Below, in pieces: positions 1 to 21,248 of a stretch of 26,124 nt of DNA. The notes under the pieces are model-generated. The model saw nothing but the letters and a program-made list of their open reading frames with translations, was not told the DNA's origin and made no database searches. A program made the position numbers and the translations under genes. Source of the DNA: a virus. Lineage: Duplodnaviria > Heunggongvirae > Uroviricota > Caudoviricetes. Where the stretch lies: positions 1-26,124 of the IMG/VR virus record IMGVR_UViG_2698536443_000009, one strand, 5' to 3'. Numbering within the stretch: position 1 is the stretch's first letter; each line of letters begins with the position of its first letter.

Positions 1-1140
1 GGGGAAAAACGAGTATTTTTAGTCATCCTGTTTACCTCTTTCTCAGGAAGTTTAGTCTCCAGGATTCCCGGGGCGGTTCACATCATTAGCTGGAAGAAGT
101 CTCCTTTCTTTCCGAACCTTGTTGATCACCTTCTGGTTAAGCATCACACGGCTGATGGCGTTGAAGATGGCATTTCAATCTGCTACTTCAAGCCATACTC
201 GCAAGGCCGCGCTCGCTGGCAGGGTGACACAATCCACGGTGTGTGGTTTGACGAAGAGCCACCATACAGCATTTATGGCGAAGGGCTTACCCGTACCAAC
301 AAATACGGTCAATTCTCAATTCTGACGTTTACCCCGCTGATGGGGATGTCTGACGTTGTTACCAAGTTCCTGAAGAATCCCAGCAAGTCGCAGAAAGTGG
401 TCAACATGACCATCTATGACGCTGAGCACTATACCGACGAGCAGAAAGAGCAAATCATCGCATCCTATCCTGAGCATGAGAGAGAGGCGCGTGCTCGCGG
501 TATTCCTACGATGGGTAGCGGTCGAATCTTCCAGATACCGGAAGAGACGATTAAGTGTCAGCCGTTCGAGTGTCCTGATCACTTCTACGTCATCAATGCA
601 ATGGACTTCGGATGGGATCACCCACAGGCACACATCCAGCTTTGGTGGGATAAAGACGAGGACGTGATTTATCTTTCTCGCGTCTGGAAGGCCAAACAGA
701 AGAAGGCGACAGAGGCATGGAGTGCTGTTAAAGCATGGAGCAAAAACACCCCTACGGCTTGGCCTCATGACGGGCATCAGCACGAAAAGGGAGGCGGCGC
801 TCAGCTCAAGGAACAATACGCCGACGCTGGGTTCGACATGTTGCCAGATCATGCAACATGGCCTGATGGAGGTAATGCGGTCGAACCCGGGATAGCAGAG
901 ATACGCGACATGATGCTCGACGGTCGTTTCAAGGTATTTAACACCTGCGAGCCATTCTTTGAAGAGTTTCGCCTGTATCACCGCGATGAGAACGGGAAGA
1001 TCGTCAAGCTAAATGACGACATCCTTTCTGCTGTTCGCTATGGCTACATGATGAGGCGTTTTGCAATACAGATGCGAGACATCAAAGATCCTAAAGAGAT
1101 TGATTACTCAAGCTACAACATACCTTGCGGAGTTGGATGA
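1..1140 (+). CDS. Terminase large subunit, C-terminal part (frame open from window position 1; N-terminus outside the window)
   Basis: Frame 1 is open from base 1 to the TGA at 1138-1140. It lies directly upstream of the portal gene with an overlapping stop/start. The assignment rests mainly on this synteny (large terminase precedes portal in P22-like phages). Confidence 0.75.
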   Translation, partial: GEKRVFLVILFTSFSGSLVSRIPGAVHIISWKKSPFFPNLVDHLLVKHHTADGVEDGISICYFKPYSQGRARWQGDTIHGVWFDEEPPYSIYGEGLTRTNKYGQFSILTFTPLMGMSDVVTKFLKNPSKSQKVVNMTIYDAEHYTDEQKEQIIASYPEHEREARARGIPTMGSGRIFQIPEETIKCQPFECPDHFYVINAMDFGWDHPQAHIQLWWDKDEDVIYLSRVWKAKQKKATEAWSAVKAWSKNTPTAWPHDGHQHEKGGGAQLKEQYADAGFDMLPDHATWPDGGNAVEPGIAEIRDMMLDGRFKVFNTCEPFFEEFRLYHRDENGKIVKLNDDILSAVRYGYMMRRFAIQMRDIKDPKEIDYSSYNIPCGVG

Positions 1141-3341
1141 TGGCTGATGATAGAAAGATGACTGACTGGCATCGCAAGGTGCTGTGCAACTTTGATAATG
1201 CCTGGTCAGCAACGCAGGATATGCGTGAGCAGATTATTGAGGCTCAACGTTTCGTCCGGGTATCCGGCGCACAGTGGGAAGGCAGCACAAACGCTGGTTA
1301 CTCATTTGATGAAGGAAGGTTTGAGCATTACCCGCGCTTTGAACTGAATAAGATTGCCCGTGAATGTGATCGCATCATTGGCGAGTATCGACAGAATCGC
1401 ATCAGCGTTAAATTCAGGCCGAAGGACGATAAGGCATCGGAAGCGTTAGCCGAAAAGATGAACGGCAAATTCCGCGCTGACTATCAGGAAACATCCGGTG
1501 GCGAAGCGTGTGATAACGCATTTGATGATGCTGTAACGGGCGGATTCGGTTGTTTCCGCATGTGTGCCGATTACGAAGATGAAATGGATCCTAGTAACGA
1601 GCAGCGACGCATCAGCCTTCTTCCTGTTTACGACCCAGCGACATGCGTCTTCTTCGATCAGGACAGCAAGCAATATGACCGCTCTGATGCTATGTGGGCT
1701 ATGGAAATGTTCTCCATGACGCCTAAAGCGTTCGAGGCTGAATACCCTGATTCCATCGCGGCAAGCCTTTCTCGTGATGACACTGGCACTCAATATGACT
1801 GGTCAACGCCAGATGCCATCTATGTTGGTCGCTACTACGAAGTTCGCATAGAGAAGGTGAAGCTCACGGCATGGCGCAACCCTGTTAGCGGAGAAACGGC
1901 AATCTATGATGAAGAGCAAATCAAAGATATTGTCGACGAGCTGACCGATGGCGCATTCGAACTGATTGGTGAGCGGACAGTGAAGAAACGCAGAGTTTAT
2001 TGCGGTCTTCTGTCTGGCGCTGAATGGCTGGAAGAACCGAAGCGTATTCCGGGCGAACACATTCCTCTCATCCCGGTATATGGGCGTCGCTCATTTGTTG
2101 ATAATCAGGAGCGAATAGAAGGCCACGCAGCAAAAGCGATGGATGCACAGCGTCTTGAGAACCTGATGGTTTCCATGATTGCAGATAACGCTACTCAGGC
2201 TGGCGGTGATGGCATTCCTGTAGTTGATGTTGACATGATTCCTGGTCCTCTTGCCACTCATTGGGCGGAGCGCAACAAAAAGCGCCCGGCGTTCCTGCCG
2301 ATGGTCAGTCTGAAAAACAAAAACGGAGATATTACTGCGCAGGCTCAGGTCAGCAGTTATACACCTCCGACACAAATGCCGCCAGCTCTTGCCGGGCTAT
2401 TGCAGTACACCGGAACGGCTATTCAGCAAATTACAGGTGCGTCGCAACTTGAGAACATGCCGAGCAACGTCGCTACCGATACCGTTGATAGCATCTTTAA
2501 CCGGATGGACACGCAGTCCTATATCTACATGGACAACATGACTAAATCCATGCGTCGCGCTGGCGTTGTGTGGCTTTCTATGGCTCGTGAAGTCTATGGC
2601 AGTGATACGCCGATGCGTATCGTTAATGAGGACGGCAGCGATGACGTGGCGCTGATGACTGGTGAAGTGGTTGACCGTCAGACAGGGCAGGTTATCGCGC
2701 TTAACGACCTTTCGCAGGGTAACTATGAAGTGACTGTCGATGTCGGTCAGTCGTTCGCTACTCGCCGTGACGCAACGGTTAAGTCGTTACTTTCCATGCT
2801 TGCACTTATCCCACCAGGAACGCCGAAGCACGACCTTGTATCGTCGATGATTCTCGACAATATGGACGGCGAAGGGATGGGCGACCTTAAAGAATACAAC
2901 CGCAATCAGTTGCTTCTGTCTGGAGTTATCAAGCCGAGAACACCAGAAGAACAGCAGATGGTTGAGCAGGCGAAACAACAACAGGCCAGTCAGCCAGATC
3001 CGGCTATGGTTGCAGCGCAAGGTCAGCTTCTTGCAGGTCAGGCTGAATTGCAGAAAGCGCAGAACGAACAGGCAGCCATTCAGGTTAAAGCATTCCAGGC
3101 ACAGACTGATGCTCAGGTTGCAGCGGCAAACGTTGTGAAAATCCTCGCATCTGCCGATAGTCAGCAGAAATCTGATATCCGCGAGGCTCTGAAACTGCTC
3201 GGACAGTTCCAGCAACAGCAAGGAGACAATGCCCGTGCTGATGCAGAGCTTGTCCTGAAGAGTCAGGCGCAGGGCCATGCGCAGCGCATGGACATCAACA
3301 GCATCCTGCAAAAATCAACTCAGCAACAACCACAGCAGTAA
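1140..3341 (+). CDS. Portal protein (P22 gp1-like), about 733 aa
   Basis: Size matches the P22 portal (725 aa). The Q/A-rich C-terminal tail (EEQQMVEQAKQQQ...AQGQLLAGQAELQKAQNEQ...RMDINSILQKSTQQQPQQ) resembles the P22 portal C-terminal barrel. The track ORF begins at a TTG at 1125; ATGs at 1137 and 1140 (MADDRK) overlap the terminase stop, so the true start is probably one of those. Confidence 0.9.
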   Translation: MADDRKMTDWHRKVLCNFDNAWSATQDMREQIIEAQRFVRVSGAQWEGSTNAGYSFDEGRFEHYPRFELNKIARECDRIIGEYRQNRISVKFRPKDDKASEALAEKMNGKFRADYQETSGGEACDNAFDDAVTGGFGCFRMCADYEDEMDPSNEQRRISLLPVYDPATCVFFDQDSKQYDRSDAMWAMEMFSMTPKAFEAEYPDSIAASLSRDDTGTQYDWSTPDAIYVGRYYEVRIEKVKLTAWRNPVSGETAIYDEEQIKDIVDELTDGAFELIGERTVKKRRVYCGLLSGAEWLEEPKRIPGEHIPLIPVYGRRSFVDNQERIEGHAAKAMDAQRLENLMVSMIADNATQAGGDGIPVVDVDMIPGPLATHWAERNKKRPAFLPMVSLKNKNGDITAQAQVSSYTPPTQMPPALAGLLQYTGTAIQQITGASQLENMPSNVATDTVDSIFNRMDTQSYIYMDNMTKSMRRAGVVWLSMAREVYGSDTPMRIVNEDGSDDVALMTGEVVDRQTGQVIALNDLSQGNYEVTVDVGQSFATRRDATVKSLLSMLALIPPGTPKHDLVSSMILDNMDGEGMGDLKEYNRNQLLLSGVIKPRTPEEQQMVEQAKQQQASQPDPAMVAAQGQLLAGQAELQKAQNEQAAIQVKAFQAQTDAQVAAANVVKILASADSQQKSDIREALKLLGQFQQQQGDNARADAELVLKSQAQGHAQRMDINSILQKSTQQQPQQ

Positions 3342-3431
3342 TTAACCCATAACGTGCAATGGCTGTCTTTATGAGGCCTGGCACCCTATTGCCTTCCGAT
3401 GGGCTGAACATCGAGTAAACAGGGGTAACAA

Positions 3432-4325
3432 ATGGACCAGATGGCAGAAAACACACCAGAAGTTGAAATCGAAACCGATACATCAGAGCAGATTCCTGAT
3501 GATGTCGAACTGGCTGAAGAAGTCGAAACAGAAGATGGCAGTGAGTCCTCCGGCAATGATGCAGAGGAAGCTACTGAAACTGATGACGACGAATCAGAGC
3601 AGGAATTCTACTTTGGTGATGAAAAGCTGGATTCGCCAACCAGCGAAGATAGCGCAGAGCATGGACTGGTAAAACACCTGCGCAAGACGATTAAAGAGAA
3701 AGACCGTGAGCTGAAAGAGCTGATGCGTCAGTCTCAGAAACCCGTCGAGCAGCAGCCGGTAATCACTCAACCACCGCGAATGCCAAAACTGGATGATGAG
3801 GACATCGGTTTCGATGAAGAAATCTACCAGCAACGCATGGCTAAGTGGGCAGAGGATAACGGCAAATACCAGGAGCAAGTACGAGAGCGGAAACGAGAGG
3901 AAGAGGCGCGTACCGCAACGCTTCAGCAGAAAGCAGCCAATTACATGCAGAGAGTAAAAGCACTGAAAGTGGCTGGCTACCAGGATGCAGAACAGGCTGT
4001 ACGCGAAGATGTTCCTGTTCATATTCAGGACATGATCCTTCTTGAGTCAGAGAAGCCGGAAATCGTTGTTCTGGCGCTTGGTCGCAACGCTGAACTGCGC
4101 AAGCAACTGGCAGAAGCTACCAACCCCGTAGCAATTGGTCGTCTGCTGGAACGTATCGAATCGAAGGCCAGAATCATGCCAAAAGCAAAAACCACGGCAG
4201 CCACAACCCCGACAGTTAAGGGGAGCAACGGCGCAGTAATCAATAACCTCGACAAACTGAAAGCCAAGGCGCTGGAAACTGGTGACTGGACGCCGTATTT
4301 CGCCGCTAAAAAGGCAAAAAAATAA
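3432..4325 (+). CDS. Scaffolding protein (P22 gp8-like)
   Basis: 297 aa with a strongly acidic N-terminus, a charged helical middle and a basic C-terminal end (KLKAKALETGDWTPYFAAKKAKK). It sits between portal and coat, as P22 gp8 (303 aa) does. RBS AGGGG upstream. Confidence 0.8.
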   Translation: MDQMAENTPEVEIETDTSEQIPDDVELAEEVETEDGSESSGNDAEEATETDDDESEQEFYFGDEKLDSPTSEDSAEHGLVKHLRKTIKEKDRELKELMRQSQKPVEQQPVITQPPRMPKLDDEDIGFDEEIYQQRMAKWAEDNGKYQEQVRERKREEEARTATLQQKAANYMQRVKALKVAGYQDAEQAVREDVPVHIQDMILLESEKPEIVVLALGRNAELRKQLAEATNPVAIGRLLERIESKARIMPKAKTTAATTPTVKGSNGAVINNLDKLKAKALETGDWTPYFAAKKAKK

Positions 4326-4343
4326 CCTATCGGAGCATTAAGC

Positions 4344-5597
4344 ATGGCTAACCAATTAGCAAAAGACCTTGAAATCATGTTCGAAAACTACGTTGAAGGC
4401 TTTGAGGCCGCCTGCGTAGTTTCCCGTAACGCTAAAAAATTCCGTCCAGGTGATACAGCAATGCAGCGAGCAGGTGATGTTCTGTATCGTCCGCAGCATT
4501 ACCACATGAACATTGAGGAAGGCCTAGACCTCAGCGGCAAAACGCCAACAGCACTGGTTCAGCGCCTTGTTCCTTCTGTGTTCAAGGAGCCGAAAAACAT
4601 TCTGTACACTCTGGATGCGCGTGAAATGCGTGACCCGGAACATAAAACTGAAGCTGGTCGCGCCGCAGGTATGCGCCTTGCTGCACAGATTGACTCTGAC
4701 CTGATTTCCATGGTCACGCAGCGTGCTACTAACGTGATCACAATGGCTGACTCAACCACAGGCACACAGGGACGTGATTTGTGGAACTGTGCGGCAGGTA
4801 TTGATGCCACCATGACGGCGATTGGTGTACCTCAGGGTATCAACCGTCGCTCTTTCTGGAACCCCTTCAACTATAAAGACCTTGCTGGCGAGCTTGGTCA
4901 CCGTGCTTATGCTCAGGGCGCAACCCTGACAGCATACGAAAAAGCGCAGATCCCTCCGGTTGCTTCCTTTGATAGCTACAAGACCGATATTTCTGGTCGT
5001 GTTCCGAAAGGGACAGCAACTTCCATTACGCTGGCAGCAGCACCTGCGCACAAAGTTGAAGCGAAAGATGCTAACGATATGCCAGTTGATAACCGACAGG
5101 GGACCATTACGGTATCTGCATCTGGTTTGCAGGTTGGCGATGCGTTCACTATTGCTGGCGTGAATTCCGTACACCAGATCACAAAAGATACCACCGGTCA
5201 ACCGCAGGTATTCCGTGTTCTGGCAGTTAGCGGAACGACAGTAACTATCTCCCCGAAAATTCTGCCGCCTGACAACGCGGATGTCGCCAGCCGTCCATAT
5301 GCAAACGTTGATGCTAATGCGGCAAGTAGCGCAGCAATCACCATTCTCAACAAAAATGCCGCACCGGCTAACCTGTTCTGGGCTGATGGTTCTGTTGAAC
5401 TGATGTACGGCAAACTGGCGTTCCCGACTGGTCAGGGTCCACAGGTAATGACAGCAACCACCGAGCAGGGCGCTACGCTGATCATGTCTTACGCCTTCGA
5501 CCACATCAAAGGCGTAACCACTGCGCGTTTCACCACTCTGTACGGTTGCTCTGTACTGGTTCCTGAATATACGGGCATCGTTATTGCCGGGCAGTAA
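4344..5597 (+). CDS. Major capsid (coat) protein, P22 gp5-like
   Basis: 417 aa (P22 coat is 430 aa), positioned after the scaffold gene. Motifs such as FWADGSVEL parallel P22 FWADDAIRI. GGAG RBS 8 nt upstream of the ATG. Confidence 0.9.
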   Translation: MANQLAKDLEIMFENYVEGFEAACVVSRNAKKFRPGDTAMQRAGDVLYRPQHYHMNIEEGLDLSGKTPTALVQRLVPSVFKEPKNILYTLDAREMRDPEHKTEAGRAAGMRLAAQIDSDLISMVTQRATNVITMADSTTGTQGRDLWNCAAGIDATMTAIGVPQGINRRSFWNPFNYKDLAGELGHRAYAQGATLTAYEKAQIPPVASFDSYKTDISGRVPKGTATSITLAAAPAHKVEAKDANDMPVDNRQGTITVSASGLQVGDAFTIAGVNSVHQITKDTTGQPQVFRVLAVSGTTVTISPKILPPDNADVASRPYANVDANAASSAAITILNKNAAPANLFWADGSVELMYGKLAFPTGQGPQVMTATTEQGATLIMSYAFDHIKGVTTARFTTLYGCSVLVPEYTGIVIAGQ

Positions 5598-5603
5598 TTT
5601 AGG

Positions 5604-5627
5604 TGGGGCTTCGGCCCCATTTTTATT
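5604..5627 (+). terminator. Intrinsic terminator-like hairpin directly after the coat gene (GGGGC-UUCG-GCCCC followed by TTTTTATT)
   Basis: Seen directly: tGGGGC ttcg GCCCCa at 5604-5619 followed by a T-run at 5620-5627, starting 7 nt after the coat stop codon. Confidence 0.65.
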
Positions 5628-5638
5628 GGGAGAAGACA

Positions 5639-5827
5639 ATGGCACGAACAATGCTCTATAAGCCGGGCAACATGATCACCTGTGGTCAGTTTGCTGTCGA
5701 TTACATCATTGTTGATGACGAAGAAGTTAAATCTCACCTGAAAAAAGGTTGGGTAAAAACTCCTGAAGAAACCGCAACGAAGCAAAAAGTGGCTAAGGCG
5801 GAAGAAGATGGCGAAAACGAAGGGTGA
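5639..5827 (+). CDS. Small hypothetical protein (62 aa) between coat and gp4-like gene
   Basis: The track ORF 5603..5827 starts inside the terminator hairpin. The internal ATG at 5639 (MARTMLYKPGN...) is preceded by GGGAGAAG and is the more plausible start. Its 3-prime end overlaps the next gene by 20 nt. No function recognised. Confidence 0.5.
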   Translation: MARTMLYKPGNMITCGQFAVDYIIVDDEEVKSHLKKGWVKTPEETATKQKVAKAEEDGENEG

Positions 5828-6269
5828 TCTCGTTCTAAAGGCTTTACGAAAAGCCGGGCTGTATTCCAATGCCACGTTGACAGATGCTGACCCTCAGGCA
5901 ATTGAAGATGCCATTAATGACCTCGAAGACATGATGGCAGCATGGCAGGCGAAAGGTATCGAGCTTGGATATCAGTTTGCTGATACAGAAAACGGCATCA
6001 TGCCGTTACCTGACGATGATTCAGGTATCCCTGCATGGGCAAATGATGGCGTCGCTTTGAAACTCGCTGTGCAAGTGTGCATGGATAACGTCATTCATCC
6101 GTCAGACGCTCTCCTTACCGCTGCTGACAGTGCATATCAGACAATCTGTATCGCTTTAACCAAAATACCACCACTTGAGCGGCGAAATGACATGCCTCGC
6201 GGTAGTGGTAACAAAAGCGCGTTTACGTGGAATCGGTTTTACATCGAGAAAGATGATCCGAGTACGTGA
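5808..6269 (+). CDS. Head completion / tail adaptor protein, P22 gp4-like
   Basis: 153 aa. The N-terminus KTKGDLVLKALRKAGL..ATLTDADPQAIEDAINDLEDMMAAWQ parallels P22 gp4 ([41 protein letters not shown]); the C-terminal GSGN motif is also shared. Confidence 0.8.
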   Translation: MAKTKGDLVLKALRKAGLYSNATLTDADPQAIEDAINDLEDMMAAWQAKGIELGYQFADTENGIMPLPDDDSGIPAWANDGVALKLAVQVCMDNVIHPSDALLTAADSAYQTICIALTKIPPLERRNDMPRGSGNKSAFTWNRFYIEKDDPST

Positions 6270-6278
6270 GGTGAATAA

Positions 6279-7697
6279 ATGCCGATTCAGCAACTTCCGC
6301 TTATGAAAGGTGTCGGCAAAGACTTTCGAAACGCCGACTATATCGACTATCTGCCAGTGAATATGTTGGCTACACCCAAAGAAATCCTCAACAGCAGCGG
6401 ATATCTTCGCTCATTCCCGGGCATTGCCAAACGTTCTGATGTGAACGGTGTATCTCGAGGCGTCGAGTACAACATGGCGCAGAATGCTGTCTATCGTGTG
6501 TGTGGCGGCAAGCTCTACAAAGGCGAAAGCGAAGTCGGTGATGTTGCCGGAAGTGGTCGCGTATCAATGGCGCATGGTCGAACATCACAGGCGGTAGGCG
6601 TTAATGGTCAACTGGTCGAGTATCGCTATGATGGTACGGTTAAAACCGTCTCAAACTGGCCTACAGACAGCGGATTCACGCAGTATGAGTTAGGCTCAGT
6701 CCGCGATATTACGCGCTTACGTGGGCGTTATGCGTGGTCAAAAGACGGAACTGATTCATGGTTTATCACTGACCTTGAAGACGAATCACATCCTGACCGA
6801 TACAGCGCACAATATCGTGCAGAATCGCAGCCTGACGGCATCATCGGCATCGGAACATGGCGAGACTTCATCGTCTGCTTTGGCTCATCGACGATTGAAT
6901 ATTTCTCCCTGACGGGCGCAACCACTGTTGGTGCCGCTTTGTATGTCGCCCAGCCATCGTTGATGGTGCAAAAAGGAATCGCCGGAACTTACTGCAAAAC
7001 GCCGTTTGCTGATTCCTATGCGTTCATCAGCAATCCGGCAACAGGTGCGCCGTCTGTGTATATCATCGGCTCCGGCCAGGTATCACCAATCGCCAGCGCG
7101 AGCATTGAGAAAATTCTCCGCTCCTACACTGCTGATGAACTGGCTGATGGTGTGATGGAGTCTCTGCGATTTGATGCGCATGAGCTGCTGATTATCCATC
7201 TTCCGCGCCATGTTCTCGTGTACGACGCATCTTCAAGCGCCAATGGTCCGCAATGGTGTGTGCTGAAAACAGGCCTGTATGACGATGTGTACCGCGCTAT
7301 CGACTTCATTTACGAAGGCAATCAGATAACGTGCGGCGATAAGCTGGAATCCGTGACCGGGAAACTGCAATTCGATATCAGCAGCCAGTATGACAAGCAG
7401 CAGGAACACCTGCTGTTTACTCCACTCTTCAAAGCAGATAACGCCAGATGCTTTGATCTGGAGGTGGAATCATCGACGGGTGTTGCTCAGTACGCTGACC
7501 GCCTTTTTCTCTCTGCAACCACTGACGGCATAAATTACGGACGTGAGCAGATGATTGAGCAGAATGAACCGTTCATTTACGACAAACGCGTTTTGTGGAA
7601 GCGTGTCGGGCGCATCAGGAAAAATGTCGGCTTCAAACTTCGCGTTATCACGAAGTCACCTGTCACTCTGTCTGGCGCTCAGATAAGGATTGAGTAA
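6279..7697 (+). CDS. Tail hub protein, P22 gp10-like
   Basis: 472 aa, the same length as P22 gp10, located between the gp4-like and gp26-like genes. Identification is by synteny and size. Confidence 0.75.
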
Positions 7698-8650
7698 TGG
7701 CGGATTCGAATCTCAATGTGCCGGTAATCATTCAGGCTACACGGCTCGACACATCAATCCTTCCACGCAATATCTTCTCGCAGTCGTATCTGCTTTACGT
7801 TATCGCACAGGGTACTGATGTTGGTAACGTGGCTAACAAGGCCAACGAAGCAGGGAAGGGGGCTTATGATGCACAGGTGAAGAATGATGAGCAGGATGTC
7901 ACCCTTGCAGACCATGAATCCAGAATTGAAGCTGCTGAAGCAACTCTCATCAATCATGAACATAGAATTGCAGCAGCGGAAAGCACTCTTGCAGAACATG
8001 AAACAAGGATTACGGCTGCTGAAACAGAGCTGGCTGATCACGAGACGCGAATTGCTGCCAATGAATCTGAGTTAGCAAACCATGATGCGCGCATAACTCA
8101 GAATACAACCGATATCGACGCACTTGATACCAGGCTCACAGCGGCAGAGGGAAGTATTTCGACGCTACAAAGCACAGCTGGTGATCACTCAACAAGAATA
8201 TCTGCGCTTGAGTATGCCACCACGCGCAAGAAATCAGAGGTTGTTTACTCAGGGGTATCGGTAACAATTCCGACAGCGCCTACCAACCTTGTTAGTCTGC
8301 TGAAAACGCTCACGCCGTCATCCGGCACGCTGGCACCATTCTTCGACACCGTTAACAACAAGATGGTTGTGTTCAACGAGAACAAAACCTTGTTCTTCAA
8401 GCTGTCGATCGTCGGGACGTGGCCCAGCGGAACCGCCAACAGGTCAATGCAACTAACATTTTCCGGCTCTGTTCCTGACACACTGGTAAGCAGTCGCAAC
8501 TCGGCGACAACGACCGATAACATCCTGTTAGCTACGTTCTTCAGCGTGGATAAAGACGGCTTTCTTGCCACAAATGGCAGCACGTTAACCATTCAGTCAA
8601 ATGGTGCGGCGTTTACTGCCACAACCATCAAGATAATCGCGGAGCAGTAA
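7697..8650 (+). CDS. Tail needle protein, P22 gp26-like, with extended C-terminal domain
   Basis: The N-terminus [43 protein letters not shown]...[14 protein letters not shown] is near-identical in pattern to the P22 gp26 N-terminus. It is followed by coiled-coil heptad repeats and a about 150 aa C-terminal domain absent from P22 gp26 (233 aa). Confidence 0.85.
7901..8110 (+). repeat. Five imperfect tandem 42-nt (14-aa) repeats encoding the coiled-coil core of the tail needle
   Basis: Translated units [14 protein letters not shown] / [14 protein letters not shown] / [14 protein letters not shown] / [14 protein letters not shown] / [14 protein letters not shown], read directly from the ORF. 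Confidence 0.55.
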
Positions 8651-9105
8651 TGATTCAGTTCAAACCAACGCGAAACATCGACCTGATCGAAGCTGTCGGA
8701 AATCACCCTGACATTATTGCCGGAAGCAACAACGGTGATGGATACGACTACAAGCCTGAATGCCGTTACTTTGAGGTTAACGTGTACGGTCAGTTTGGCG
8801 GCATTGTTTACTATCAGGAAATTCAGCCGCTTACATTCGATTGCCACGCCATGTACCTGCCAGAGGTTCGTGGATTCAGCAAGGAAATCGGGCTGGCGTT
8901 CTGGCGATACATTCTGACTAACACCACCGTTCAGTGCGTCACATCGTTCGCTGCGCGCAAATTCCGCCACGGTCAGATGTACTGCGCAATGATTGGCCTT
9001 AAGCGTGTAGGAACCATCAAGAAATACTTCAAAGGCGTGGATGACGTGACGTTTTACAGCGCCACACGCGAAGAACTAATCGACTTCCTGAATCACGGGA
9101 GATAG
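8650..9105 (+). CDS. gp14-like protein (position of P22 gene 14)
   Basis: 151 aa ORF between the tail needle and ejection-protein genes; its ATG overlaps the preceding stop (TAATG). Assignment is by synteny only. Confidence 0.55.
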   Translation: MIQFKPTRNIDLIEAVGNHPDIIAGSNNGDGYDYKPECRYFEVNVYGQFGGIVYYQEIQPLTFDCHAMYLPEVRGFSKEIGLAFWRYILTNTTVQCVTSFAARKFRHGQMYCAMIGLKRVGTIKKYFKGVDDVTFYSATREELIDFLNHGR

Positions 9106-9107
9106 CT

Positions 9108-9803
9108 ATGTTATATGCATTTAAGCTGGGCAGAAAACTGCGCGGCGAGGAACCTTATTGCCCTGAAAAAGGCGGGAAAGGTGGCAGCTCTGATAAAAGC
9201 GCAAAGTATGCCGCAGAAGCTCAGAAGTATGACGCAGACCTGCAAAATAAACAGTGGCAGACGATCATGAAAAACCTTGCTCCGTTCACGCCGCTTGCGG
9301 AGCAGTATGTTAACCAGCTTCAGAATCTTTCCAGTTTAGAAGGACAGGGGCAGGCACTTAATCAGTATTACAACTCTCAGCAGTATAAAGACCTTGCAGG
9401 TCAGGCGCGTTACCAGAGTCTTGCTGCTGCGGAGGCGACGGGAGGACTTGGCTCGACAGCCACAAGCAATCAACTGGCCACGATTGCCCCGACTCTCGGT
9501 CAGTCGTGGTTGTCGAACCAGATGAGCAACTACAACAATCTGGCAAACATTGGCCTTGGTGCGCTGCAAGGTCAGGCGAACGCCGGGCAGACATACGCCA
9601 ACAACATGAGCAGCATTGCGCAGCAAAGCGCAGCTCTTGCCGCTGCTAATGCCAATAAACCATCAGGCCTTCAGACAGCAATTAGCGGCGGAGCTTCAGG
9701 GGCTATGACTGGCGCTGCTCTTGGCTCTATTGTTCCCGGGCTTGGCACTGGATTAGGTGCGGCAATTGGCGGCGGACTTGGCCTGCTTGGCTCGTTGTTT
9801 TAA
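9108..9803 (+). CDS. Ejection (internal head) protein, P22 gp7-like
   Basis: 231 aa (P22 gp7 is 229 aa), first of three consecutive ejection-protein genes, with a Gly/Ala-rich hydrophobic C-terminus. RBS GGGAGA. Confidence 0.7.
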   Translation: MLYAFKLGRKLRGEEPYCPEKGGKGGSSDKSAKYAAEAQKYDADLQNKQWQTIMKNLAPFTPLAEQYVNQLQNLSSLEGQGQALNQYYNSQQYKDLAGQARYQSLAAAEATGGLGSTATSNQLATIAPTLGQSWLSNQMSNYNNLANIGLGALQGQANAGQTYANNMSSIAQQSAALAAANANKPSGLQTAISGGASGAMTGAALGSIVPGLGTGLGAAIGGGLGLLGSLF

Positions 9804-9812
9804 GGGGTAATC

Positions 9813-11201
9813 ATGGCTACTTGGCAAGGATCAAATGGCGGATTGTTGGCTGGTATCGGCGGTGTCAACTCAAACGCTCCGAGCGTAAATGACATCGGCA
9901 ATACGCTTCAGCTTATCAGGCAGAACAATGATATTGAGCGTTCAGGCGCTAACAATGTTGGGCTGACTGCTTTGCAAGGCCTTTCAGGTATTGCGGGGGT
10001 GTTTCAGCAGGAAAAGCAGGCTCAGCGGCAGAAAGAATTTCAGCAGGCATACGCTAATGCTTATGCGTCTGGTGATCGCGGTGCTTTGCGTCAGTTGGCT
10101 ACTCAATATCCAGACCAGATTGAATCCGTTCGTAAAGGCATGGGATTCATTGATGAAGACCAGCGCAATTCTATCGGCACCTTAGCGGCTGGCGCTCGTC
10201 TTGCGGCATCGTCTCCAGAAGCAATGCAATCATGGCTGCAAAACAACGCCAAGGAACTGACTCGCGTCGGTGTTGACCCTAACAACGTTGCTCAGATGTA
10301 TCAGCAGAATCCTTCAGGATTTGGTGAGTTTGTTGATCACCTTGGGATGGCTGCGCTTGGTCCGATTGATTACTTCAATGTTCAGGACAAGATGGCTGGT
10401 CGTGAGATTGATCGCGGAAAACTTGCAGAGACAATCCGCAGCAATCAGGCTGGCGAGGCGCTAACAGCACGAGGCCAGAACATCACGATGCGCGGTCAGG
10501 ACTTATCTGCTTCTACTGCGCGACGCGGGCAGGATTTGGCAATGCAGCGAGCGTCAACAAGAGGAACCGCTGGGAATGATGAGCGTACAGTTCAGTTATC
10601 AGATGGCAGAACTGTAACGGTAGGCGGGAAACTTCACGGCGCTGGGGCTAATGCGTTCTACGAAGGCATCGACAACGAGGGGAATATGGTTCGCGTTCCT
10701 GCCAGTTCAATCGCAGCGCCTGCAACATCGTCTGCATCAGCACAAAACTATGCCATGAAGAAGGATATCGACGCGATCGCAAATGCAGACGCTTCTGCTC
10801 TCGATTTCATGACAGGAATGACAGGCGGTGCAGGTAATCCAGCAATTGGTGCTGATGTTCGCAGCCGATTAACAGGAAAAGAGCAGCGCCAGTTATATAA
10901 CTCAGCACAACGTATTCAGGGCAGAATGCAGAATCAGGGTGTGGCGGCAGCAAGGGACATGGGTGCCAGTGGTATTAACACCGTTGCAGAAGCGAAGATG
11001 TATTTTCAGGGGATGCCGCAGGTTGACTATTCAAGCCCGGAGGCTATGCAGCAGTCGATTCGTGAGATTCAGGAATACACCAACAATTACAACCAACAAT
11101 ATAACGTTAATGTTGGTAAATCTCAGCGGCAGCAATCTCAACCTGCACAGGTATCACAGCCAGCAGCCAGCAGTAACTTTTCTTCACTATGGGGTGATTA
11201 A
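9813..11201 (+). CDS. Ejection protein, P22 gp20-like
   Basis: 462 aa (P22 gp20 is 471 aa), in the syntenic position. RBS AAGGGG. Confidence 0.7.
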
Positions 11202-13198
11202 TGGCTAAAGCATGGAAAGATGTTATCGCCTCTCCACAGTATCAGGCGTTAGCACCAGAACAAAAAGCGCAGGCTCAGGAGCAATACTTCAATGAAGTCG
11301 TGGCCCCGCAAGCCGGAGAAAATGCAGAGCAGGCTAAGCAAGCTTTCTATGCTGCCTATCCATTGCCATCTGTGCAGCAAGTGGAGACACAGCAACCAGT
11401 AGCACAGCAACAACCACAGCAAAGTGGATTTATGTCTGATCTTGGCGAAGCAGTAAAAGAGACTGGTCGCGGACTGGTGCAGGCTGGCGTGAACGTGGCA
11501 AACATACCTGCATCAGTCGCCGATGCTGTAACAAGCGCGGCGGCTTGGGCTGGCGGTAAACTCGGCATTGGCGATGGTACATATCAACCAGCGCCACGAG
11601 TAACAACGCAGGGATTAGAGCAGGACTTTGGCCTTCAGCAAGGTGCGCTGACTCCACAAACGACAGAGGGAAGGGTATTTGCTGAAGCATTGCCTTACCT
11701 CACTCCTGCTGGAGTTGAGAGAGCTGCAACACAGGCACCAACACTTGCTGGTCGAATTGCTCAGGGTGCAACTCGCCTTCTCGCAGAAAACGCAGTTGGA
11801 TCACTTGCTGCAAATAGTGCGAAAGATGATGCGGAAGCACTCGCCACCGATTTAGGCGTTGGTGTGTTGGCTGGCGGTGCTATTAACGCTGCCGGACGTG
11901 GATTAGGTGCTGCTTATCGTGGCGTTCGTGGTGCTATTGCGCCAGAAGCGCAGCAGGCTATCAGATTTGCAGAGCGTGAAGGAGTGCCTCTGCACACCAC
12001 AGACCTGTTACAACCTACTTCCCGCGTCGGAAAAATGGCTCAGACTACAGCAGAAAATATCCCTCTGGCTGGCACAAGCGGAATGAGAGCAACGCAACAG
12101 GAAGCGAGAAGTCAGTTGGTGCAGAGATTTGCCGATAAATTCGGGGAGTATGATCCAGCGGTTGTTATTGACAGCCTTAAAGCGAAAACATCAGGAATTC
12201 GTCGTGCTGCCGGTAATCGACTGGAGCAGGTTCAGAATGCTATGGCTGGAGTAAACATTCAACCTGCGCGAGCAATTCAGCAGATTGATACAGAAATATC
12301 TAACCTGCAGAAGCTTGGTAAGGTTGCTGATAACGAGACTATTTCAAAACTTCAGTCATATCGTGATGAGCTTGTTCGCAATGCTGGTCCTGATGGTCCG
12401 GTCAATCTGGATTTGAAGCAATTAAGCGATCTGCGCAGCCAGTTCAGAATGGACGTGAAGGGTGAGCGACCAGTGTTACCAAACCGTTCCGATGCTGCCA
12501 TTCAGCGAGTTTACAAGGCGATGACCGACGATATCAATGGTGCCATTGGTCAGAATCTTGGCAATGATACTCTTCGTAAATATCAGCAGGCCAATGCCGT
12601 CTACGCTGACGAAGCGGCGAAACTAAAGAATACCAGGCTGAAGAATGTTCTCATGAAAGGCGACCTGACGCCGGAAGTTGTCAACAACATGCTATTCAGC
12701 AAGAACAAATCGGAAATTAAGACTCTGTATAACTCAGTTGGTCGTGTTGGCAGGGCGCAAATGCGCAATGGCATCATTGGAAAGGCGATGGAGAAATCAG
12801 GTGGTTCCCCTGACCAGTTCCTTCGGCAACTTAACATCCTGCAAAACCAGACTGGCATCACATTTAAAGGTCAGGAAGCCGCTTATCTGAAAGGATTGAA
12901 AAACTACCTGCAATCCACGCAACAGGCTGCAAAAGCAGCAGTAACAACACCAACAGGGCAGCAAACCATCCCGTTCATTATCGGGTATGGGACGGCAATG
13001 AACCCGGCGACAACTGGCGCAGCGGTAAGCTACGGACTTCTTACTCGCGCCTATGAGAGCGAGCCATTCAGAAATGCAATGCTCCGAATGGCAAACACAC
13101 CACGCGGATCAACAGCGTTTGAGAAAGCCATGCAGCAGGCGCAAAAGGCCATTAACGCCCTGACTCAGGGTGCCAAGTCTGATGCGTTGTCAGAATAG
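11201..13198 (+). CDS. Ejection protein, P22 gp16-like
   Basis: 665 aa (P22 gp16 is 609 aa), last gene of the ejection trio, with a TAATG overlap to the preceding gene. Confidence 0.7.
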   Translation: MAKAWKDVIASPQYQALAPEQKAQAQEQYFNEVVAPQAGENAEQAKQAFYAAYPLPSVQQVETQQPVAQQQPQQSGFMSDLGEAVKETGRGLVQAGVNVANIPASVADAVTSAAAWAGGKLGIGDGTYQPAPRVTTQGLEQDFGLQQGALTPQTTEGRVFAEALPYLTPAGVERAATQAPTLAGRIAQGATRLLAENAVGSLAANSAKDDAEALATDLGVGVLAGGAINAAGRGLGAAYRGVRGAIAPEAQQAIRFAEREGVPLHTTDLLQPTSRVGKMAQTTAENIPLAGTSGMRATQQEARSQLVQRFADKFGEYDPAVVIDSLKAKTSGIRRAAGNRLEQVQNAMAGVNIQPARAIQQIDTEISNLQKLGKVADNETISKLQSYRDELVRNAGPDGPVNLDLKQLSDLRSQFRMDVKGERPVLPNRSDAAIQRVYKAMTDDINGAIGQNLGNDTLRKYQQANAVYADEAAKLKNTRLKNVLMKGDLTPEVVNNMLFSKNKSEIKTLYNSVGRVGRAQMRNGIIGKAMEKSGGSPDQFLRQLNILQNQTGITFKGQEAAYLKGLKNYLQSTQQAAKAAVTTPTGQQTIPFIIGYGTAMNPATTGAAVSYGLLTRAYESEPFRNAMLRMANTPRGSTAFEKAMQQAQKAINALTQGAKSDALSE

Positions 13199-13267
13199 CT
13201 TCGCAAACACCAGGAACGTGCAAAAACCAAATATGTAGAACGCAATATTCATCATATCTCTTTGCAT
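13190..13267 (-). CDS. Candidate small hydrophobic peptide (25 aa, MQRDMMNIAFYIFGFCTFLVFAKLF) downstream of mnt
   Basis: On the minus strand, GGAGG (13276-13272) lies 4 nt before an ATG at 13267; the ORF runs to a TGA at 13192-13190. It is too short for the ORF track. It occupies the position where P22 carries sieA/hkcC. Confidence 0.25.
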   Translation of the reverse strand: MQRDMMNIAFYIFGFCTFLVFAKLF

Positions 13268-13287
13268 AAATCCTCCGTAATGGATGG

Positions 13288-13551
13288 TTAGTTGCTGTCT
13301 TTTTTATATAGCTCCTTTAGCGTGTCAAAGACAATTTTCTTAACCATATCGGATTGTTGTTCTGCCATACGCTCTGCATCGTCAATGTAAACTGATGCAG
13401 AGCTTTGTTTATCCAGTGATTCTTCAATCGCTGCAATTATCTCTGAGTTCAGAGACCTGTTATTCATCTTCGCACGCTGTTTAATCTTCGCGTGGAGTTC
13501 ATGCGGAAGTCTCAAGTGAAACTGCGCCTCGTCGTATTTGCTGTACATCAT
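13288..13551 (-). CDS. mnt: Mnt repressor (Arc/MetJ ribbon-helix-helix family), P22 immI region
   Basis: From the MMYSKYDE start, the protein aligns along its length with P22 Mnt: FHLRLPHELHAKIKQRAKMNNRSLNSEIIAAIEESLDK versus FNFRMPMEVREKLKFRAEANGRSMNSELLQIVQDALSK, and DDAERMAEQQSDMVKKIVFDTLKELYKK versus NDAERLADEQSELVKKMVFDTLKDLYKK. The track ORF is extended upstream to 13632; the start at 13551 (or 13548) has a GGTGAGG RBS. Confidence 0.85.
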   Translation of the reverse strand: MMYSKYDEAQFHLRLPHELHAKIKQRAKMNNRSLNSEIIAAIEESLDKQSSASVYIDDAERMAEQQSDMVKKIVFDTLKELYKKDSN

Positions 13552-13962
13552 CAATGCCTCACCTAATGGGTGGAATGGCATCGTAAAACCTACTGTACAA
13601 ATCAACAATCGTACCGTTTCGGTATGTAACAAACGCCAACCGTAGCCATGCTGCGGCGATTCCTTGTATCTGGAGCAAATTAAATGACAGATATTATAAA
13701 TAGGAATTTTTATTTAATAATATTTGAAAATTAAAATCATGGACGATAGGAATAAAAGTAGTACTTGTCATTTTTAAGTGACGCATTAAACGCATAAAGC
13801 ATATGTCTGTTGATCAAGATTCTTACTTGTTGTAAAATAATTGTCCTGTTCATGTTGCATGGTTTTAAAATGAATAGAAGATTATTTTTCAAAACAATTG
13901 CATCTTTGTCTGCAGTCATTCCGTTTTCTTCAATATCTAAATTTTCAAACAGGATGACTAAT
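13552..13962. promoter_or_regulatory. AT-rich control region between mnt and the tailspike gene (expected Pmnt, possible operator remnants and tailspike promoter)
   Basis: About 410 bp of AT-rich non-coding sequence with several inverted repeats (CACC-N6-GGTG near the mnt start; AAATGACA ... TGTCATTT separated by about 75 bp). P22 has arc and ant here; they are absent. Confidence 0.35.
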
Positions 13963-16194
13963 ATGCCTGATATAACTCCAAATGTTGTAATTGGGATGCC
14001 TTCGCAACTCTTCACTATGGCTCGCTCTTTTAAAGCGGTAGCCAATGGCAAAATTTATATAGGAAAAATTGACACTGACCCGGTAAATCCTGAAAACCAA
14101 ATTCAGGTTTATGTAGAGAACGAAGACGGTTCTCACGTTCCTGTTTCGCAACCAATCATCATTAACGCTGCTGGTTATCCGGTATATAACGGACAGATTG
14201 CCAAATTCGTAACCGTGCAAGGCCATTCAATGGCTGTTTATGATGCATACGGTGCGCAGCAGTTCTATTTTCCTAATGTGCTGAAGTATGACCCTGATCA
14301 GTTTAGAACAATAATAGAGTCAAATTATGGTGCGGGGCATGTTGGTACTTCGTCTGGACTAACAATTCAGCAGTTGATTGATTCTTTTATTGTAGTTACA
14401 CCACAAATGTTTGGTGAATCTGGAAAGTCAAATGATTCAACAATAGCAATTAACTCTGCATTGGACTATCTTGAGTCTCTAGGTGGTGGGATTATTTATC
14501 TTCCTCCAGGTAAATATTACGTCAGCATTGAAAAATCAGGTCATAATTATTCATGCATTAGAGTTCCCGCTAACGTAACTTTCTGTGGGGCTGGTGCTGG
14601 ATCTACCATCATTCAGAGACTACCCACTGAGAGGGGGATGGATGGTGTCTTGATAACAAATAAATATTATGATACTAGAACTGGCTATGGAGCTGCCGGC
14701 AATATTGTTTTTAGAGATTTTACAATCACTGACGGTAGCGCAACCCCAACAAGGGATTATGGTGATTTAATCGGTTTAGGTCATAGCAAAAATGTAACTA
14801 TAGAGAGAGTGGAGCAAGGGAGACATGATCAACATTTTGTTGATATTGCAGGATCAACCGATGTAACAGTCAAAGACTGTCACGGGTCGTGTGATATGGA
14901 GGTGGACCATATTACGTGGAATTGTGATATACAGATTGATTCCGCTCAACCAAACGCAATACTTGGAATTAAAGTTGATGGCACACCTAGCACAAATATA
15001 ATTATTAGCGGAAATAAACTTCAAAACAAAAGCTCAAATTTGCAAATTGAAATAGGACATGCTGGGGGAGTATATAGAAATATTATTATTTCTGATAACA
15101 TACTTGATGGGGCATATTTTCAAGACTCATCAGTTATTGGTTGTAACTCAACAACAGCTACCATTATCAATTTGAGCATAAATAACAATCAAATACTAAC
15201 AAATAATATAAATTCAAGAGGTGTTAATCTTTATTGTCTTGGGAATAACGAAAAACTTATTGGTATTTCTTTTAGTAATAATATTATAAGAGGTTATGCT
15301 AGGATTGGTGCATGGTTTGGGACTAATGGTAATTATACTGGAACGAAGTTTCCTCATGATGATGTAACAATAATAGGAAATAAATTCTTTCTAACATCGC
15401 CTTCATCTGGAACATTTGTTCAAGGTGTTGTTGTTGCTGGTTGGCGATCTGTTGTATGTAGTGATAATATAGTTGAGATATATTCTGATAATGAATTTTC
15501 TTCAGGGTGTTCGGTGATATCAGTTTGGAAAAATGGTAGTGCTAAGGTAAGTGATAACAATATCTCTAGAACATGTGGTGCAACACCTGACGTATCATCT
15601 TCAGTTATTTCGTTGATACTAATCACCCCTGAACCTTCCAGCATTGATAAGGCGTCATCAATCCATATTAATGGAAATGCTTTCTTTGGAGATATTCCTA
15701 GATATGCAATAAATCACAAAGAAGGGTGGATTGAAGGATATGACATGATAGTTGTATCAGGCTCTCATGGTAGATTTAACCAAACATTTATAGGCACGCA
15801 AGGGGCGCATATGTATGAAACGTACCCAATTTCTGATATGACAAATTTCAATCAACCAGTGTCAATAAATGGTCAATATAGAAGGCAGGTATACAGAGGA
15901 AATATTTACAAGTCAACGTTCAATTTGAAGAAAAATGGAAGTGAAACAAGTGGGGCTAAGGTGGATTTTTTTATATCTAATGAACGCTCAAAAATAACAG
16001 GTTCTGAACAATTGAATGTAGCATATATATCTCCAACTGAGTCTGTGGGAATCACCGCTACATCAATAGATTTGTCATCAGGAACACTTAATATAATTAC
16101 TGGAACAAATGGTGTATCTATGAATTTAAATCCATCCAATAAGCAGCCTGAAATAAGAAATAGCGCGTATATAAGCGCAAGGATTTCCATTTAA
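13963..16194 (+). CDS. Tailspike protein: P22 gp9-like head-binding N-terminal domain plus divergent receptor-binding domain
   Basis: [97 protein letters not shown]...[10 protein letters not shown] matches the P22 tailspike N-terminal domain closely. AGGA RBS 8 nt upstream of the ATG at 13963. The rest is AT-rich and unrelated to P22 gp9. The track ORF starts further upstream at 13810. Confidence 0.9.
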
Positions 16195-16985
16195 AATTCA
16201 GAAATTAGCCATAAAAAGCATGAAGTCTATCATCCAAGTGTCAATCGATCGATGACTTGCGGTGGTTGATGAGACAAAACTGAGACACACAAAGCTTTGC
16301 ACTGGATTGCAAGGCTTTGTGCTCTTCGATAGTGGTTAAGGTGGATCACTCCACCTTTTCATCAAGCCAGTCTGCCCACCACTGCATCATTTCTCTGCGC
16401 TTAATGTAGCGGATGCCTCACTATCACATAGTGATGGTTCATTACTGCTTTGTAGAATTGATAGAGAACTGAGGATAAAAAGATATCCCAAAACCCCAAA
16501 ATCTCATCTTTAGGATTTGCAGAAAGGGAGGCGTGAACAGATACCTGCGCATGAAGACGGAACTAGTCCAGATGTGATATTTGTGGTGATCACATACATC
16601 ATTAACGATGCTCGTTATGGTGAGTTTGATGACTACCCGCTGAAGTGAAAATTGTGTTGTGTACCAAATTGCGTACCAAACTAAAATCACAAATCATGAA
16701 ACCCTTGTTCATGGCGGTTCTCAGGGGTGTTGCGCGTAATCGTGAAACAAAAAGGTAGATTGTTGCTTACCGTCATTCATCATTAGGTTAAATCCGTTAT
16801 TTCTGCTGTCTGCCAGAGTATCAAATATCACCGTGCTAATCAGCTTTAGCGCCACAATTTGGCAGCGAGTGGCAACAGATCATGTCAGATAAAAATGAGA
16901 GGGTAGTCACATTTTCTTGCACTTTATTCCAGCCAGTTCATAAGTATTTCCGTAAAAAGAACAGCTATTTGAAACTCCTGAGGGT

Positions 16986-18158
16986 TTGCTGTTGAAACGC
17001 CGTCTTATTATTGCTGCTTCTTTGTTCGTTTTTAACTTATCGTCTGGTTTTGCGGCGGAAAACATTCCTTTTTCACCTCAGCCTCCAGAGATTCATGCCG
17101 GGTCCTGGGTATTGATGGATTACACCACCGGTCAGATCCTCACCGCGGGTAATGAGCATCAACAGCGCAATCCCGCCAGCCTGACAAAGCTGATGACGGG
17201 TTATGTCGTGGATCGCGCTATCGATAGTCATCGCATTACGCCAGACGATATTGTCACCGTGGGGCGCGATGCGTGGGCGAAAGATAATCCGGTGTTTGTC
17301 GGTTCTTCACTGATGTTTTTGAAAGAGGGCGATCGCGTATCGGTACGTGATTTAAGCCGTGGTTTAATTGTGGATTCCGGAAATGACGCTTGTGTTGCTC
17401 TGGCTGACTATATTGCCGGTGGGCAACGGCAGTTTGTTGAAATGATGAACAACTATGCCGAGAAGCTGCATCTCAAGGATACGCATTTTGAAACAGTGCA
17501 TGGTCTGGATGCACCTGGCCAGCATAGCTCGGCTTATGATTTAGCTGTGCTTTCTCGTGCTATCATCCACGGCGAGCCCGAGTTTTATCATATGTACAGT
17601 GAGAAAAGTCTCACCTGGAACGGTATCACCCAGCAAAACCGTAACGGGTTGTTGTGGGATAAAACCATGAATGTTGACGGCCTGAAAACGGGTCATACTT
17701 CTGGTGCCGGGTTTAATCTCATTGCTTCGGCTGTAGATGGGCAGCGTCGTCTCATTGCAGTGGTAATGGGGGCTGACAGTGCAAAAGGTCGTGAGGAAGA
17801 GGCAAGAAAATTACTGCGTTGGGGGCAACAAAACTTTACTACGGTGCAAATTTTGCACCGTGGGAAAAAGGTCGGAACGGAACGCATCTGGTATGGCGAT
17901 AAAGAAAATATCGACCTGGGAACGGAACAAGAGTTCTGGATGGTGCTACCGAAAGCCGAAATTCCACATATCAAAGCCAAATATACCCTTGATGGTAAAG
18001 AACTCACCGCGCCAATTAGCGCCCATCAGCGGGTAGGGGAAATTGAACTTTACGACCGTGATAAACAGGTGGCGCACTGGCCGCTGGTTACCCTGGAATC
18101 TGTCGGGGAAGGCAGCATGTTTTCTCGCCTGAGTGATTATTTCCACCATAAGGCCTGA
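16986..18158 (+). CDS. dacD: D-alanyl-D-alanine carboxypeptidase DacD (PBP6b)
   Basis: Signal peptide, SLTKLMT (SxxK active-site motif), SGND and KTGHT motifs typical of class A low-molecular-weight PBPs. Length and sequence fit E. coli DacD. Start is TTG at 16986 or the TTG at 16992 (giving 388 aa). Confidence 0.93.
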   Translation: MLLKRRLIIAASLFVFNLSSGFAAENIPFSPQPPEIHAGSWVLMDYTTGQILTAGNEHQQRNPASLTKLMTGYVVDRAIDSHRITPDDIVTVGRDAWAKDNPVFVGSSLMFLKEGDRVSVRDLSRGLIVDSGNDACVALADYIAGGQRQFVEMMNNYAEKLHLKDTHFETVHGLDAPGQHSSAYDLAVLSRAIIHGEPEFYHMYSEKSLTWNGITQQNRNGLLWDKTMNVDGLKTGHTSGAGFNLIASAVDGQRRLIAVVMGADSAKGREEEARKLLRWGQQNFTTVQILHRGKKVGTERIWYGDKENIDLGTEQEFWMVLPKAEIPHIKAKYTLDGKELTAPISAHQRVGEIELYDRDKQVAHWPLVTLESVGEGSMFSRLSDYFHHKA

Positions 18159-20607: not shown

Positions 20608-20964
20608 TTAACAACAGCCTTCTTCTGTATGCAGCAAGGCAAAAAGTTCTGTAACTCCATTGTTATTAACTGCACTGGTTACTAACACGTTGTGCGCTCC
20701 AGCTTCCCGTAACCAACTTTTCACCAAAGATATTTGTTCCATGCTGGCTAAATCTGCTTTGGTTACTACTCCAATGACCGGGTGATTCATGGCCCGGTAG
20801 GGCGTTTTTACCTCTAATTCCTGCTTCAGCGCTGAGATTCCTGCTTGTTGCCAGAAAAGCAGGCACCTGCCGTCTGAACGGTATCGATCCGGAAGCGTAT
20901 CTGCGCCATATTCTGAGCATACTGCCGGAATGGCCCTCCAACCGTGTTGACGAACTCCTGCCAT
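20608..20964 (-). pseudogene. EutP/PduV-like GTPase C-terminal fragment (yoeF-like remnant); only about 20608..20830 is protein-like
   Basis: The C-terminal part of the ORF (HPVIGVVTKADLASMEQISLVKSWLREAGAHNVLVTSAVNNNGVTELFALL) resembles the C-terminal region of EutP/PduV-type proteins. The N-terminal part is the antisense of the IS66-like fragment and is W/R/C-rich, so the gene is truncated. Confidence 0.45.
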
Positions 20965-21210: not shown

Positions 21211-21248
21211 GTTTATAAATGAAAACGCCAGCTGTATTCAGGCTGGCG
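21211..21248 (-). terminator. Intrinsic terminator downstream of yeeW (minus strand)
   Basis: Minus-strand hairpin CGCCAGC cugaauaca GCUGGCG (21248-21226) followed by UUUUCAUUUAU. Confidence 0.5.

Follow-up and report, generated by a model that had tools for sequence, protein, structure and literature searches.

The current analysis concerns a 26,124-bp stretch of DNA, hereafter the window, which is the entire contig CYFN01000063.1 of the draft Escherichia coli assembly GCA_001283445.1 and in which a phage late-gene region lies directly beside the host gene dacD. Three blocks can be recognized within it: one terminus of an IS3-family insertion sequence (IS) at 1-79, prophage DNA at 80-16747 and, from 16735 rightwards, host DNA. 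We are highly confident that the second of these blocks represents the right-hand portion, with the late genes, of a P22-like prophage (Lederbergvirus, similar to Sf6 and Sf101) residing at the type-2851 attachment site in sbcB. An initial annotation of the sequence had already proposed a P22-type podovirus prophage at sbcB-dacD, and this is borne out by the P22 gene order of the Pfam matches, by host identity that begins at 16735 and by the presence of an attachment core at the junction. Unusual as the position of a P22-like phage beside dacD may seem, it is the standard attachment site in sbcB, and the result matters mainly for the annotation of such loci.

The segment between the tailspike gene and dacD is the most informative part of the window. 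It had been described as about 790 bp of non-coding sequence, and dacD is called from 16992, but the contents of the gap are not uniformly non-coding host DNA: 16195-16734 is phage DNA constituting the left (P) arm of attP, and a further 49 nt are sbcB coding sequence. When 16195-16985 is aligned with an empty locus, as the initial annotation suggested, only its right third finds a match, and a duplicated core together with an sbcB 5' stub is found beside dacD. Both C600, the K-12 derivative that served as the prophage-free reference, and other prophage-free strains match only 16735-16985 of the gap, the first 49 nt of this match (16735-16783) being nt 1-49 of C600 sbcB. As the initial annotation had stated for K-12, sbcB is the neighbor of dacD on that side in C600, where the two genes are divergently transcribed. 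To the left of the host sequence, 16267-16764 exhibits 93% identity to the attP region located upstream of int in phage Sf101.

The boundary between phage and host is a 13-bp core, CGTAATCGTGAAA, which is the only block common to attB, attP, attL and attR. Read on the minus strand, these 13 bp encode F13-H14-D15-Y16 of SbcB together with the first base of the E17 codon, placing the junction inside sbcB codons 13-17, with the original codons 1-12 retained at 16748-16783. A four-way alignment of attB (C600), attP (Sf101), attL (from the lysogen VE-T2) and attR (the window) reveals an exact reciprocal swap of the arms around this core. What remains of the original sbcB gene beside dacD is an orphaned 5' stub that terminates shortly after entering phage DNA, followed by an unaltered intergenic region, which presumably holds the native promoters of both sbcB and dacD. 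The earlier view that the prophage replaced the sbcB-proximal neighborhood can accordingly be set aside, as the insertion is clean and retains both the sbcB start and the intergenic region. Likewise, a tRNA attachment site of the thrW or argW type is not what is found here, just as the initial annotation had argued: the junction lies in a protein-coding gene, and ARAGORN detected neither tRNA nor tmRNA genes across the whole window.

This structure is best explained as follows. A tyrosine integrase most likely catalyzed site-specific recombination at the 13-bp core within sbcB codons 13-17, and the window holds the right junction (attR), which consists of the P arm, the core, the original first 16 sbcB codons including the core, the untouched intergenic region and dacD. 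At the opposite end, to judge from relatives, the P' arm would supply a surrogate ATG plus 14 codons, MTDTDKQPTFLFHDY, that join the remainder of sbcB in frame. The copy in the window is damaged, as an IS3-family element sits in terL and the contig ends inside the IS. A matching int and attL are expected to the left of the contig, separated from it by about 22 kb and the IS, unless an IS-mediated deletion has occurred. The repeat GYGTACCARAY occurs twice in tandem in the P arm and three more times in the P' arm beside int (VE-T2), compared with about 0.05-0.06 expected, and these copies are candidate arm-type integrase sites. Several points nevertheless weigh against this account. The int gene, attL and the rest of sbcB all lie outside the window, and for this strain they are deduced from the relatives VE-T2 and EC01307. 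The IS could mark the end point of a deletion, in which case the upstream terL sequence and the early genes may no longer exist on its far side. The arm-type repeats were identified by repetition and position alone. Finally, scanning the VE-T2 P' arm with a simple consensus revealed no promoter that could drive the chimeric sbcB; across this arm and the attR region, neither promoter nor terminator consensus matches exceeded what shuffling predicts.

The site itself is well documented. In Sf101, the same 13-bp CGTAATCGTGAAA was reported upstream of int and found to be identical to the attP of the Shiga toxin (Stx) 2c phage 2851; integration of both phages in the 5' end of sbcB was demonstrated by junction PCR and sequencing, and the Sf101 integrase shares 99% identity with its counterparts in 2851, HK544 and mEp234 (PMC4159516). 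The statement of the initial annotation that sbcB is a known site for Stx-converting phages agrees with the core of 2851 and with surveys listing sbcB among the standard Stx-phage insertion loci (PMC8309913, PMC10042803), while the main text of a further article (PMC8112680) contains no mention of sbcB. The window junction belongs to the type-2851 module on account of its core, its location at the sbcB 5' end with the sbcB-dacD flank and a P arm homologous to those of characterized members. To assess how common the arrangement is, we searched 5,426 complete E. coli genomes, the same set being used for the IS and terL searches described below. The attR type, defined by the presence of at least 80% of window 16195-16985, was found in 460 genomes, and the sbcB-P'-arm-int (attL) junction was found in 582, indicating that the site is occupied in about 8-11% of complete E. 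coli genomes. Among phages, the attP is carried by 27 records, which include the lambdoid phages HK140, HK544 and mEp234, the Stx phages 2851, 1717 and WGPS4/6/8 and the P22-like phages Sf101, APC_JM3.2, E212 and EC.P3. The GenBank records of HK140, HK544 and mEp234 annotate it as "attP; prophage attachment site (type 2851)", and an attP query reaching from the core-proximal part of the P arm across the core and through the P' arm (L003:4100-4420) has full-length matches of 94-95% in HK140, HK544, mEp234, APC_JM3.2 and E212. A scan of GTDB species representatives for the core plus P' arm returned one match, an E. coli. The novelty implied by the initial annotation is thus not upheld: the type-2851 site is already known for a P22-like phage, Sf101 having been published in 2014, and it is found in hundreds of genomes.

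According to Pfam profile searches, 80-16194 is a collinear P22/Sf6-type virion module on the plus strand that begins with the last two-thirds of terL, ends with the tailspike and follows the P22 gene order (Table 1). The portal, coat, gp4, gp10 and gp26 genes occur in the conserved order with E values from 9e-41 to 7e-301, and they are followed by gp7, gp20 and gp16 and then by a tailspike with a P22-type head-binding domain. The scaffolding open reading frame (ORF) had no Pfam match and is assigned by position. Gene lengths are those of the intact EC01307 prophage, except for a one-residue difference each in the portal and gp7, and over most of 1154-13268 the window shows 94-96% identity to other P22-like elements, both phages and prophages, among them Sf101, JEP4 and EC01307. 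The immI region (13288-13962) holds mnt alone, arc and ant being absent there; other prophages with an identical tailspike carry mnt-arc-ant or other inserts in immI.

Table 1. Features of the window, listed from left to right, with the basis of each call.
Feature	Position	Strand	Basis and remarks
Terminal 79 bp of IS3-family element	1-79	-	100% identity to transposase copies in 3,553/5,426 complete genomes
terL 3' part, about codons 146-498	80-1140	+	Terminase_6N (profile positions 101-214 only) and Terminase_6C
Portal, P22 gp1 type	1140-3341	+	PF16510, E 4e-169; called as 733 aa
Scaffolding protein	3432-4325	+	By position; syntenic 297-aa gene annotated "scaffold protein" in EC01307
Major capsid protein, P22 gp5 type	4344-5597	+	PF11651, E 2e-76
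gp4, head-completion/tail-hub	5808-6269	+	PF11650, E 9e-41
gp10, head-completion/tail-hub	6279-7697	+	PF11134, E 7e-301
Tail needle gp26, Sf6-type knob	7697-8650	+	PF16532, E 9e-108
gp14	8650-9105	+	PF11039 (DUF2824)
Ejection protein gp7	9108-9803	+	PF25688, E 9e-133
Ejection protein gp20	9813-11201	+	PF16928, E 5e-78
Ejection protein gp16, 665 aa	11201-13198	+	PF26808 Phage_P22_gp16
Mnt-type Arc-family repressor, 87 aa	13288-13551	-	PF03869 Arc and PF11423 Repressor_Mnt
Tailspike, 743 aa	13963-16194	+	PF09008 head-binding domain, E 1e-65, ending about 14304
Hairpin GGTGGA-TCAC-TCCACC, then TTTT	16339-16360	+	Read from sequence; present in minimum-free-energy fold
Decayed S24 (UmuD/LexA-like) peptidase C-terminal fragment, internal stop	16397-16648	+	Translation; PGAP pseudogene in S5 and EC01307
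Two tandem GYGTACCARAY copies, candidate arm-type integrase sites	16659-16681	+	2 in window, 0.06 expected
Orphaned original sbcB 5' stub	16721-16783	-	ORF translation: MMNDGKQQSTFLFHDY, then AQHP and stop from phage DNA
att core, attR copy, 13 bp CGTAATCGTGAAA	16735-16747		Single exact match in window
Unaltered sbcB-dacD intergenic region	16784-16991		98-100% identity to prophage-free strains; 208-bp spacing as in C600
dacD	16992-18158	+	388 aa, intact; PF00768 and PF07943; call and length match other strains; first host gene right of prophage

A different history could conceivably have led to the same arrangement. In this scenario, a resident sbcB prophage would have kept its tailspike and attR, whereas its left part was replaced in situ by homologous recombination with P22-like phages. 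Such a course would account for several mosaic features. Firstly, four contigs (L007-L009 and L011) share with the window, at 99.7% identity, a segment that starts at about 13415/13639, includes the tailspike, attR and dacD and ends at about 22,400, whereas their left virion genes are only 87-97% identical or unalignable. Secondly, these contigs differ in their immI contents, and mosaic boundaries are evident at 1154, about 14304 and about 16270. However, the same pattern would arise from one host lineage lysogenised repeatedly by mosaic phages that share an O-antigen-matched tailspike, and free P22-like phages with this att module do exist (Sf101, APC_JM3.2 and E212). We consider replacement in situ a minority possibility that deserves to be kept in mind; it alters the history of the prophage, not the nature of the junction, which in either case is that of a P22-like prophage integrated at the type-2851 site.

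At its left end the prophage is interrupted. The inverted repeat TGAACCGCCCCGGG runs leftwards from base 80/79 (TGAACC...), and orfA of the IS starts at base 26, with the minus-strand translation MTKNTRFS. In strain B25FEP, whose terL is intact and 1,497 nt long, the equivalent of base 80 is nt 437; the window terL is cut by the IS at about codon 146, and its 5' third is separated from the remainder. In this terminase family, the 5' part of terL carries the ATPase domain. The virion module had been called complete in the initial annotation, a description that is no longer tenable with terL cut at base 79/80 and terS not in the window; the intact terminase (terS plus full-length terL) typifying a P22-like virion module is lacking from the window. 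Because terL is cut by the IS, DNA packaging is most likely impossible and, as far as can be predicted from the sequence, the prophage is most likely defective in this respect, whatever the state of its early region. The IS-terL junction was found in none of the 5,426 complete genomes, every terL match beginning at base 80, and an exact portal-protein look-up, which was aimed at sequence beyond the left contig end, gave the source contig alone. Both ends of the window are probably repeat-induced contig breaks. It is improbable that the prophage is instead intact and inducible, with the 79 bp of IS being a short-read artefact produced by mis-joining of a repeat k-mer to terL. The ending of a draft contig in a multi-copy repeat, the absence of the junction from all other genomes searched and the full-length ORFs of all other virion genes would be compatible with such an artefact, but contigs usually stop in repeats that truly adjoin them, the join sits exactly at the IS terminal inverted repeat, as it would for a true insertion, and the same contig record has been reported for a second sample. 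A non-site-specific event (deletion, IS-mediated rearrangement or assembly chimera) that removed sbcB and placed phage DNA by dacD, as replacement of the neighborhood would imply, might be argued from the lack of the remaining sbcB sequence in the window and from the IS at the far end, but it is scarcely credible, given a junction at the published 13-bp core with the exact arm structure of attR, the same junction type in 460 complete genomes and comparators carrying full-length sbcB at the other prophage end.

The literature consulted on integration at sbcB, the gene for exonuclease I, speaks of "disruption" or "occupancy". The sequences of the phage arms suggest otherwise. An in-frame ATG plus 14 codons (MTDTDKQPTFLFHDY; MTGT... 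in Sf101, MTGTDKQP...) lies beside the core in all seven of the phage attP/P'-arm sequences examined, for instance at 4445-4490 of L004, 4174-4219 of L003 and 4337-4382 of L012; the corresponding host N-terminus is MMNDGKQQSTFLFHDY. In the lysogens VE-T2 and EC01307, PGAP annotates an intact sbcB of 474 aa, and the SbcB of VE-T2 is 98% identical to that of K-12, the differences being mainly confined to the first nine residues. Judged by these reading frames, integration leaves a full-length chimeric sbcB in VE-T2 and EC01307. That phages duplicate the terminal part of their target gene in their own genome is well established, and for this reason the surrogate codons are only a modest point; no description of the surrogate N-terminus was found in the literature consulted, the original phage 2851 paper being outside the coverage. 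For genome annotation, a lysogen of this kind should be checked before its sbcB is recorded as disrupted, as the phage arm restores the frame in VE-T2 and EC01307.

One may speculate further that the type-2851 attP rewires sbcB rather than breaking it, such that lysogens would produce a chimeric exonuclease I (ExoI) controlled by the phage arm. In that case the P' arm would presumably contain its own promoter in the 181-bp divergent region between int and sbcB, and the native sbcB promoter would be left facing the right end of the prophage, where Sf101 has the minus-strand oacB. We regard this extension as doubtful. The core covers the codons of the catalytic residues Asp15 and Glu17 (the latter by its first base), which could explain the stability of the site as a target. 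SbcB affects RecBCD-independent recombination, and sbcB mutations suppress recBC. It has also been reported to affect the anti-phage system DRT10 (bioRxiv 10.64898/2026.04.29.721553). If rewiring does take place, altered ExoI expression in lysogens could matter to the phage because of these effects upon recombination and DRT10.

The N-terminal 120 residues of the tailspike match the head-binding structures of both P22 and Sf6, and residues 1-121 alone match PDB 7sg7 (Sf6 gp14) with an E value of 8e-65. The gene most likely starts at 13963, not 13810, in agreement with the gene-caller and PGAP calls; an in-frame upstream extension with a twin-arginine-like leader (13870-13962) was set aside on the same grounds and is probably untranslated. 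Beyond the head-binding domain, the receptor-binding cassette (14304 to about 16270), which encodes the other 620 residues, has a GC content of 0.33-0.40, compared with about 0.50 in the rest of the prophage. No close relative of this cassette was detected among 50,697 phage records, in which the best match to residues 121-743 is a protein of Vibrio phage eugene with 36.5% identity. A large protein database contains only about ten relatives of the receptor-binding part, some of them with a PF12708 Pectate_lyase_3 domain, and a weak match to the AlgE4 beta-helix was obtained as well. The tailspike presumably acts as a depolymerase of O antigen with a new specificity, and as the cassette is unseen in isolated phages, it may be of interest for O-antigen depolymerase mining. 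An identical tailspike occurs in contigs from 28 public-assembly index blocks, and dacD adjoins it in all 24 contigs examined.

Several smaller features lie between the tailspike and the core. The hairpin downstream of the tailspike is possibly the terminator of the late operon; a simple terminator scan of the attR region did not flag it. The S24 peptidase remnant is retained in Sf101 and in many lysogens. An 82-aa ORF on the minus strand (16442-16690), listed as orf17 in Sf101, was rejected as a gene, being antisense to the S24 remnant and having no family match. More generally, the small ORFs on both strands of 16195-16985, as well as Sf101 orf17, yielded no Pfam match at E <= 10.

To the right of the prophage, the host gene order is dacD, sbmC, yeeA and tmaR, followed by a C-terminal PduV/EutP fragment (20608-20964, minus strand). 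The remainder of the window (20900-26124) is a CP4-44-like island of a kind common in E. coli, which encodes a cbtA/cbeA toxin-antitoxin pair, a RadC-like yeeS, an antirestriction gene and a DUF932 gene. The position beyond tmaR is occupied by a full pdu operon in VE-T2 and by a cob gene (CobU) in contig L011. With the prophage on one side and the CP4-44-like island on the other, the dacD-tmaR segment is bracketed by two mobile elements.

Among known systems, Sf101 (KJ832078; Jakhetia et al. 2014), a serotype-converting phage of Shigella flexneri, is likewise a P22/Sf6-like podovirus. Its virion genes align with 57% of window 1-16800 at about 94% identity, and it has a homologous attP region and a surrogate sbcB N-terminus. 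Unlike the window, it carries oacB, encoding an O-acetyltransferase, between the tailspike and attP; the receptor-binding part of its tailspike is unrelated, and its terminase is intact whereas the terL of the window is cut by an IS. The EC01307 prophage (NZ_CM130033.1, 1793336-1832642) shares the locus, the orientation, the portal-gp16 gene order (95.9% identity over 1154-13268), the S24 remnant and attR. Its layout reads sbcB, int, early genes, late genes, tailspike, S24 remnant and dacD, with 39.3 kb between the cores; it differs from the window in having another tailspike receptor-binding domain, a PBSX-family terminase and a terL without an IS. In VE-T2, the block from the tailspike to yeeA, including attR, is 98.3% identical, and the other side of the prophage reads tsuB-sbcB-int. 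The VE-T2 prophage at sbcB (12241-17321) is itself an example of decay, having lost its head and tail module and retaining a truncated DNA transfer protein and an IS3-family pseudogene.

P22 and Sf6 share the virion gene set and its order with the window prophage, and their solved structures fit the head-binding domain of its tailspike. They integrate at thrW and argW, respectively, both of which are tRNA genes. In Sf6 and CUS-3, homology to the window ends at 16403, short of the sbcB-type attP arm. In the other type-2851 phages (2851, HK140, HK544, mEp234, 1717 and WGPS4/6/8), the core and P' arm are identical. According to GenBank, HK140 and HK544 are Hendrixvirinae, and 2851 and WGPS8 belong to Pankowvirus. 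As GenBank places them outside Lederbergvirus, their virion genes are taken to be of a different type, and the att/int module would be all that they share with the window prophage. No stx gene is evident in the window, in which the virion module is P22-type, and the usual stx position, between Q and the lysis genes, lies outside it. The sbcB site and its integrase/att module are common property of lambdoid HK/mEp phages, Stx phages and P22-like phages.

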